A stretch of DNA of 28,387 nucleotides. Origin: an uncultured archaeon (GTDB taxonomy: Archaea; Asgardarchaeota; Lokiarchaeia; Sigyniarchaeales; SOKP01). The stretch spans positions 1 through 28,387 of the forward strand of contig CAZDTP010000047.1 in assembly GCA_964508365.1 (NCBI GenBank), given 5' to 3'. The notes under the pieces were generated by a model. That model made no database searches and was not told where the DNA came from. It saw nothing but the letters and a program-made list of their open reading frames with translations. Positions 7,281-8,541 of the stretch are shown here, piece by piece (position 1 is the first letter of the stretch; each line of letters begins with the position of its first letter). A program made the translations under genes and the position numbers.

Positions 7281-7293
7281 AAAACTTTTTTAG
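7281..7293 (+). promoter_or_regulatory. candidate BRE/TATA element for the his leader transcript
   Basis: AAAACTTTTTTAG lies about 85 nt upstream of ATG 7376. The region is AT-rich, so specificity is low. Confidence 0.25.
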
Positions 7294-7375
7294 TTTACAG
7301 TGCATAGGATACTTAATAGAATAAATGTTAGCTAGTTTAGCTATCTCTAGAATAAAAACTCAATAGTGAATTGAT

Positions 7376-7522
7376 ATGGCTTTTCTAAAAAGGGAAGGAG
7401 TTAATCTATTGAGTTTAATCTTTGTTGATGGGTCAAATAACACTATTGTTATTAGATCGGATGATGTTAAGAATTTTCCTTTACTTTTTTCACATCTACA
7501 TCATCATCTACATCATAAATAA
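7376..7522 (+). CDS. putative His leader peptide (HisL-like uORF), 48 aa from ATG 7376 or 37 aa from TTG 7409
   Basis: MAFLKREGVNLLSLIFVDGSNNTIVIRSDDVKNFPLLFSHLHHHLHHK*. Six CAT His codons fall in eight codons (7493-7516) just before the TAA. AAGGAG (7395-7400) is 8 nt before TTG 7409. The stop is 86 nt upstream of hisIE. Confidence 0.75.
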   Translation: MAFLKREGVNLLSLIFVDGSNNTIVIRSDDVKNFPLLFSHLHHHLHHK

Positions 7523-7603
7523 TTCTGATGAATTAGGGTAGAATACTTACTCGAATATTCATTGGAATTGAATCGAACTGAAATCTAATTCAGTTTTGGG
7601 GGT
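7501..7603 (+). promoter_or_regulatory. putative attenuator with alternative RNA helices
   Basis: 7501-7506/7526-7531 (TCATCA/TGATGA); 7529-7537/7584-7592 (8 WC + 1 GU); 7575-7582/7589-7596 hairpin followed by TTTT and then the GGGGGT RBS of hisIE. The last two helices share 7589-7592 and are mutually exclusive. Confidence 0.6.
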
Positions 7604-7608
7604 ATTTT

Positions 7609-8541
7609 ATGTTAATATTAAAAGTTGAAATGAAGGATATAGAATTGCTGGGAGGAATTAATCAGTTTATTAAAGAGGTATTTTTAAAACGGAATTGGGA
7701 TGTTTTTTTAACTTTAGTCCTAAAAGTCAATAAGCAAGATTTCGATAGACTGAACATGAATAATAATAATTTGAAAGAAATTTCTCAGAATCTAGATATA
7801 AGATTTGAAATAGGTGAAGGTCAGAATGAGATGAAAAAGCTGGTATATAAAAGAGGTTATAAAACCATTACTCTATCTTCACCTAACCGTTATGAAATCA
7901 TCAATTTTAATTCAAAAATAAATTATTCGTTAGTAGACGATAATTTGCTTTACATTCTCGATTTTGATAAAGGGCAAGGACTAATTCCGACAATAGTACA
8001 AGATCAGAGCGATACCGTTTTAATGCTTGCATACTCTTCTAAAGAATCATTAAAACAAACAATAAACACTCGGAAGGCAACTTATTTCAGTAGATCAAGA
8101 AATAAACTATGGTTAAAGGGAGAGGAATCTGGAAATTGTCAAACCGTAAAAAAAATTTTATTTGACTGCGATAATGATTCTCTCCTGTTTAAAGTTGAAC
8201 AAACCGGATATGCTTGCCACACAGGAACATATTCTTGTTTTTCTGATGGAGAATTTTCATTAAGCATTCTCTATGATTTAATCAACAACCGAATAGAGAA
8301 TTTTACAGTATCAGATTCTTATACTAAGAAGCTGGCGGAAGATAGTAAATTATTACTTTCAAAAATCAAGGAGGAAAGCTTAGAAGTGATAAATTTCACA
8401 GATAGAGAGAATCTTGTCTGGGAAATTGCTGACTTAACATATTTTATCTTAGTTTTAATGGCTAAAAAAGGAATAAAACTTCAAGATATTTTAAATGAAT
8501 TATGGAGTAGAAGAAATTATGGCGGCAAAAAACAAAAATGA
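7609..8541 (+). CDS. hisIE: bifunctional phosphoribosyl-AMP cyclohydrolase / phosphoribosyl-ATP pyrophosphohydrolase with an N-terminal extension of about 115 aa
   Basis: HisI motifs [34 protein letters not shown] and [10 protein letters not shown]; HisE motifs SYTKKL, KIKEE and [12 protein letters not shown]. Confidence 0.93.

Follow-up and report, generated by a model that had tools for sequence, protein, structure and literature searches.

A conserved histidine-codon leader with a covarying RNA helix at its stop codon, upstream of hisIE in an Asgard archaeon: a possible ribosome-read histidine gauge

In the stretch of Asgard archaeal DNA analysed here (the window, 28,387 nucleotides in length), the hisIE gene is preceded by a short open reading frame (ORF) that ends in a cluster of histidine codons, and the stop codon of this ORF lies in the foot of a long RNA helix, P1. 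That this His leader with its covarying P1 is a conserved element is well supported by comparison with its relatives, and the element is probably regulatory. We lean, by a modest degree, towards reading it as the RNA component of a histidine gauge that is read by the ribosome, whose position on the leader would decide whether P1 forms. The element has the sensor features of leader-peptide attenuators and not their terminator/antiterminator features. The preliminary description of this stretch had seen a His-codon leader followed by RNA structure upstream of hisIE, and in this respect our comparison bears it out for an archaeon. The features to which we refer are the following, all on the forward strand.

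7281 to 7293, forward strand: conserved box AAAACTTTTTTAG, a candidate BRE/TATA element of the leader transcript, nearly invariant in both genera that carry the leader
7356 to 7416, forward strand: helix P0, 7356-7365 with 7407-7416, in the RNAalifold consensus of 13 sequences
7376 to 7522, forward strand: leader ORF, with His codons at 7493-7495, 7499-7507 and 7511-7516 and the stop at 7520-7522
7432 to 7457, forward strand: helix P0b, 7432-7441 with 7448-7457, within the leader ORF, in the RNAalifold consensus, with C-G changed to U-A in three sequences
7460 to 7505, forward strand: helix a:b, 7460-7467 with 7498-7505, in which the first His codons are paired with an upstream segment
7521 to 7569, forward strand: helix P1, 7521-7533 with 7557-7569, and its inner stem, 7536-7541 with 7547-7552, from folding and covariation
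7529 to 7592, forward strand: helix B, 7529-7537 with 7584-7592, present in this sequence and not a conserved feature
7575 to 7597, forward strand: hairpin C, 7575-7582 with 7589-7596, and the U-run 7594-7597; 99.5% paired in 24 distinct sequences
7598 to 7611, forward strand: ribosome binding site (RBS) of hisIE, GGGGGT at 7598-7603, and start codon at 7609-7611, with the PRA-CH and PRA-PH domains encoded downstream

The leader ORF has 48 codons, ends in SHLHHHLHHK followed by the stop, and is separated by 86 nt from the ATG of hisIE at 7609. The genes 3' of the leader are in the order hisIE-G-D-C-B-H-AF, the last of them a hisA/F fusion. As in leader-peptide attenuators, the ORF carries a cluster of codons for the amino acid of its operon. 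This His tail is unique in the genome: among 231,378 stop-to-stop frames of at least 10 residues no other has six His in its ten final residues, and, with His at 1.64% of codons, the chance of at least six per ten codons is about 4e-9 per ten-codon window. All 29 correctly read loci contain an open, ATG-started leader ORF, 33-54 codons in length, and in every relative read four to six His are found among the last ten codons, the tail commonly being HHWLHH with at most one further residue. The frame survives deletions of 9 nt and 42 nt and a length difference of 18 nt among the relatives. The ATG is conserved together with a GTGAAT upstream of it (in two genomes an upstream TTG is also a possible start), and the G-run of the hisIE RBS (G4-6) is kept in most relatives in the alignment of the 24 distinct sequences.

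A covariance model spanning the region from the His codons to the hisIE start was used to search the genomes of the order. The leader element was found in 14 of 150 genomes, in two genera and always 5' of hisIE, and also on all 17 metagenome contigs with the same HisIE N-terminal domain. These 14 Promethearchaeota genomes and 17 contigs supplied the 24 distinct sequences of the comparison set. The his operon is patchy in this lineage, to judge from the finding of hisIE in 18 of the 40 related genomes that were searched and of the leader in 14 of the 150 of the order. The genome has a G+C content of 31.8% and encodes several TBP copies and seven actin-family matches, the best at 429 bits. A 16S rRNA gene was not found in the assembly; the TBP and actin genes, together with the deposition of the relatives as Promethearchaeota MAGs, bear out the archaeal, Asgard origin, and that the locus is common to many MAGs argues against contamination. 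HisIE itself has an extra N-terminal domain of about 115 residues (residues 1-115, 7609-7955) that is without a Pfam family, co-occurs with the leader and has a confident alpha/beta AlphaFold model (pLDDT 86). This domain was considered as a possible RNA binder and set aside, as a fold search of the model gave no significant PDB match. In four leaderless members of the genus (G001, G002, G011 and G014) the N-terminal extension is a different one, about 210 residues long, and the 5' region is short.

P1 is the strongest helix of the leader and was missing from the helices listed in the preliminary description. It comprises 13-14 bp, its 5' arm starts inside the leader stop codon, and it dominates every fold. 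The preliminary description had staked its helices on folding better than shuffled controls. This holds for the slice 7518-7600, which folds into P1 and C at -23.9 kcal/mol compared with -12.0 +/- 2.5 in dinucleotide shuffles (z -4.78, 0 of 200), and for the entire leader, 7310-7625 (z -4.46), while the wider slice 7490-7625 by itself reaches just z -1.73. In the 24 distinct sequences P1 is 97.4% paired; P1 and C jointly are 98.2% paired with 15 double-change cells, which was matched by none of 500 shuffles, and sliding the partners of P1 and C lowers the pairing to 19-55%. The compensatory changes in P1 are from U-A to C-G at two positions and among G-C, G-U, A-U and U-A at a third. In every aligned relative the leader stop and the beginning of P1 share bases (TAATTCC or TAATCCC), so that the stop and the regulatory codons are placed where ribosome position could choose the fold, as they are in attenuators. 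RNAalifold, run on a MAFFT alignment that had been fitted to no model, independently recovers P1, C, P0 and P0b.

Three further helices lie upstream. P0 is the top stem of a scan of column pairs, and its pairs are retained in 10-13 of the 13 sequences, some of them changed on both sides; its loop holds the SD-like GTGAAT (7366-7371) and the ATG (7376) of the leader. In helix a:b 84.3% of cells are paired and 13 are double-change cells, a result matched by none of 500 shuffles. P0b and a:b account for most of the apparent conservation of the peptide in the middle of the ORF, and P0b for much of that in the segment SNN..VIRS. Comparison of the relatives thereby establishes the ORF with its start signals and His cluster, the position of the stop within P1, and five predicted helices, P0, P0b, a:b, P1 and C. 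The stems of P0 and hairpin C are near-identical (AACUCAAU/AUUGAGUU and AACUGAAAU/AUUCAGUU) and almost invariant, and they differ at the central pair, by which cross-pairing is mismatched in all relatives. This likeness suggests a duplicated module or a common protein partner.

Hairpin C, which had been described as an 8-bp helix, is backed by covariation across the relatives: G-C is changed to A-U in three sequences, in a stem that contains two G-C pairs and otherwise hardly varies, and the loop differs among sequences. C was also said to be followed by TTTT and the RBS. The TTTT at 7594-7597 and the GGGGGT at 7598-7603 are both present, but three of the four T lie inside the helix. The U-run, 4 nt here and 3 nt in eight of the 24 distinct sequences and in six of a set of 13 genomes, is paired with A's of the 5' arm and is then followed by the G-run (G5-6). 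No terminator-like site was called at hairpin C and no terminator consensus was matched. In this genome runs of at least 7 T occur downstream of 26% of convergent genes compared with 12.5% in the antisense control, and a hairpin plus T is found at gene ends in 18% of cases in sense and 18% in antisense. This enrichment of T-runs without enrichment of hairpins fits hairpin-less oligo-U termination in this genome, and C does not resemble the genome's gene ends. In Methanococcus the terminator unit is a U4-tract with aCPSF1, and U3 tracts are not bound (PMC8716108). Taken together, the short U-run running into a G-run, the lack of a terminator call, the genome's gene ends and the U4 requirement of aCPSF1 make C a poor terminator, predicted to be at best a weak, factor-assisted one in part of the family.

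No helix that would compete with C is conserved, as judged by a systematic scan of all column pairs, and the only conserved overlap is that of P1 with helix A, the pairing of His codons with the P1 5' arm. We modelled the ribosome by masking 30 nt around the A site in four positions: the first, the second and the last His codon, and the stop. C was in the minimum-energy fold of all 13 genomes under every mask, with a probability of 0.93-1.0 in ten of them; folding with footprint masks, by which the preliminary description proposed to check its competition between B and C, therefore speaks against it, as C persists with the ribosome on early His, late His or stop codons. When one arm of C was forbidden, the best alternative was 0.4-10 kcal/mol worse than the free fold, and in this window the free fold already uses that alternative. 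Since C is formed in all modelled states, we place it outside the switch. We found neither an intrinsic terminator (a G+C-rich stem with a U-tract) before the first gene nor mutually exclusive terminator/antiterminator or sequestor/antisequestor helices.

The histidine gauge that we favour would follow the region 1/2/3 logic of bacterial attenuators, in which a stall allows 2:3 to form and completion leaves region 3 free. The leader ORF with its four to six terminal His codons would be translated up to the stop in the P1 foot. Using footprint geometry from PMC7261190, a ribosome stalled on the first His cluster (A site 7499-7507) would have its edge at about 7511-7518 and leave P1 free to form; on the last two His codons it would open 3-7 bp of the P1 foot; and once its A site holds the stop codon it would cover 7521-7533, the whole P1 5' arm, and keep P1 open. 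The difference in reach between the His cluster and the stop suggests that P1 formed would be the starvation state, when histidine is short, and P1 blocked the state of sufficiency. Hairpin C would be constitutive. The His codons may also pair weakly with the P1 5' arm as helix A (TCATCA/TGATGA, 7501-7506 with 7526-7531), which had been proposed from the sequence. The complementarity is real, but at 88% paired the helix does no better than shuffles, and at most it appears to fit a region 1:2 pairing. Of the 'classic attenuator geometry' claimed for this leader, regions 1 to 3 are thus recognisable (the His codons, the stop at the edge of region 2 and a 2:3 helix) and the terminator/antiterminator pair is not. 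The peptide itself, or an RNA-binding protein reading the near-identical P0 and C stems, may also have a role.

How P1 would act on hisIE is a separate question. Our leading guess, and a tentative one, is RBS masking: a blocked P1 would leave its 3' arm unpaired, and this arm would then bind the U-run and the GGGGG of the hisIE RBS and reduce initiation. If the 5' arm of P1 is masked, the minimum-energy fold of this window pairs 7553-7573 with 7588-7607, including the SD GGGGGT, at -15.1 kcal/mol, compared with -12.5 kcal/mol for the hairpin-C fold on a slightly shorter slice. The core of this pairing is possible in 94.7% of cells, and bacterial leader-peptide attenuators include RBS-sequestering variants (PMC9413887). 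The pairing is mostly G-U, however, with zero covariation, and equals shuffled controls; it is 2-9 kcal/mol worse than hairpin C in most relatives and is the minimum-energy fold in this window only. Modelled accessibility of the SD shows no consistent difference between stalled and terminating ribosomes. A terminating ribosome does not stay for long, so that an effect on translation would require the leader to be translated often.

Two other routes to hisIE were considered and dropped. When the full leader is folded for this window, the 5' CUCU at 7343-7349 pairs with the hisIE SD, and the helix of 7324-7349 with 7597-7619, which joins the 5' UTR to the SD and first codons of hisIE, closes a multi-helix junction. 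Such a 5' anti-SD closing the whole leader has a probability of at least 0.5 in only five of 21 leaders folded, is weaker in two and is absent elsewhere. A +1 or -1 frameshift on hungry His codons into hisIE does not apply, since the +1 frame runs into a stop within the P1 5' arm or shortly after it, and the distance from stop to ATG modulo 3 varies among relatives.

Factor-assisted termination ranks next after RBS masking as the output, and we regard it as unlikely. P1 would here set whether the roughly 50 nt after the stop are folded or single-stranded as the polymerase moves through the region of C and the U-tract, and open, uncoupled RNA would lead to FttA/aCPSF1 termination. For this the conserved parts, a ribosome-gated helix, a constitutive hairpin and a U-tract, would suffice, and the genome encodes a 638-codon beta-CASP gene of the size of aCPSF1. 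The aCPSF1 protein binds U4-tracts and its Lokiarchaeota orthologue substitutes for it in Methanococcus (PMC8716108), and FttA has been proposed to police the coupling of transcription and translation (PMC11616081). On the other hand, the U-run is no longer than U3 in a third of the relatives, and aCPSF1 did not bind U3 in vitro (PMC8716108), and the FttA pre-termination complex feeds RNA from the exit channel directly to the nuclease (PMC11616081), so that folding further upstream may not matter for FttA.

Intrinsic attenuation, in which C and the U-run terminate and another fold, for example 7564-7573 with 7588-7597, prevents this during starvation, is in our view quite unlikely. A hairpin followed by U's between the leader and the first gene is kept in all 24 sequences, and the 10-bp alternative is present in the window at -4.8 kcal/mol. 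As a terminator, however, C has a U-run of 3-4 nt that lies mostly inside the stem and gives way to a G-run, it matches no terminator consensus, and at gene ends in this genome it is runs of at least 7 T, not hairpins with T, that are enriched in sense. The column-pair scan and the ribosome masks likewise argue against it, with no conserved competitor and C persisting throughout. The 10-bp alternative was rejected as an antiterminator: its only G-C pair, at its centre, is paired in six of 14 relatives (G-C in three, A-U in three).

It is improbable that there is no histidine gauge here, the structured leader instead encoding a small His-tailed protein (for example a metal-binding one) or being the target of an RNA-binding protein through the P0 and C stems. 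The nearly identical and almost invariant sequences of these stems are in keeping with such a reading, and an ORF of 33-54 codons exceeds typical bacterial leaders. Against this, the only frame in the genome with such a His tail sits 5' of the his operon, the conservation in the middle of the ORF is that of RNA helices, and the His cluster and the stop within P1 are kept in all relatives.

The model of the preliminary description, in which helix B is an antiterminator against a terminator C and a ribosome at the stop blocks B so that C terminates or occludes the RBS, is extremely unlikely: B (9 bp, one of them G-U) and its nested 4-bp stems do exist in this sequence, as does the overlap of B and C at 7589-7592, but B is not conserved, C forms under every ribosome mask, and the same bases that make the 5' arm of B are taken by P1, which is transcribed earlier. 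Among the relatives B is 79.4% paired with zero double changes, 456 of 500 shuffles being at least as good, and its fifth and eighth pairs are broken in nine of 22 and 16 of 23 relatives, respectively. Where U is changed to C in the shared 5' arm, the P1 partner changes with it (U-A to C-G, four sequences) and the B pair is left unpaired in nine of 22. Calculated for the window, B together with the nested stems comes to -9.5 kcal/mol and A with C to -10.4 kcal/mol, compared with -23.4 kcal/mol for P1, its inner stem and C, a disadvantage for B of about 14 kcal/mol. The nested stems, which are not conserved, were dropped together with B. With the anatomy corrected in this way, P1 and the His codons are the parts to target, not helix B.

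Leader-peptide attenuation is textbook bacterial control that relies on ribosomes acting on nascent or fresh mRNA. No archaeal case was found in the literature searched, and attenuation is unmentioned in a review of archaeal transcription-translation coupling. We put forward, with a confidence slightly on the positive side, the Asgard gauge as the first archaeal leader-peptide attenuation, consisting of one ribosome-gated helix at the stop and a constitutive hairpin abutting the RBS, its output being RBS access or FttA-type termination. If this is true, the nearest relatives that eukaryotes have among prokaryotes read the charging of tRNA by means of the translating ribosome, and the element would be a compact natural reporter with which to test, in archaea, transcription-translation coupling and the quality control that depends on FttA.

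The closest likeness is to the enterobacterial hisL attenuator (RF00514), also a short ORF with a run of His codons directly 5' of the his operon. Both have a chain of neighbouring helices, the regulatory codons in a helix arm and the stop at the edge of the next helix. In contrast to hisL, the host is archaeal, the ORF is longer, the His codons are in two clusters, often with Trp-Leu between them, and in place of a terminator/antiterminator pair there is a constitutive last hairpin that abuts the RBS and has U3-4 only. No match to the Rfam His_leader family RF00514 was obtained, either at the gathering threshold or at E values up to 10, and Rfam families in general, including the T-box, gave no matches. 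The predicted His-leader attenuators of Firmicutes and the RBS-sequestering attenuator variants (PMC9413887; Actinobacteria, PMC1262725) are likewise lineage-specific and non-homologous and were found by comparison of upstream regions, and some of them act on the RBS and not on termination. Those bacterial leaders have recognisable terminator or sequestor helices, whereas the sequestor pairing here is weak and putative. In the translational attenuation of ermC and cat, as in our model, a ribosome paused in a leader ORF remodels the RNA near the next RBS. The ground state differs, however: the RBS of ermC is sequestered until a stall releases it, and the one here is predicted to be mostly open. 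In the Rho-dependent tnaC and mgtA/corA leaders an ORF and RNA folding gate a termination factor and no hairpin competition is needed; the candidate archaeal factor would be FttA/aCPSF1. A histidine T-box also senses the charging of tRNA-His 5' of his genes, but this leader has a conserved ORF in place of Stem I or specifier architecture.

Some smaller observations concern the leader and its surroundings. The box AAAACTTTTTTAG is, from its position and conservation, a candidate promoter element of the leader transcript; as a general promoter motif it was dropped, since it is not enriched upstream of this genome's genes. The genome lacks trpE and trpA, so that there is no sister Trp leader to be sought, and a scan for other short frames rich in one amino acid was crude and too noisy to use. 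In 12 of the 24 distinct sequences Trp-Leu separates the His clusters (CAUCAUUGGCUACAUCAU), and a thirteenth has HHWHYH. The CAUUGG of the Trp-Leu leaders copies the 3' arm of P1, and the possible pairing of the His codons with the P1 5' arm thereby grows to 7 bp. The 5' arm of P1 can also fold on itself at 7520-7535 (UAAUUC-NGAU-GAAUUA) into a 6-bp mini-hairpin that contains the stop codon, is 93% paired and has an A-U to G-C exchange in two relatives.
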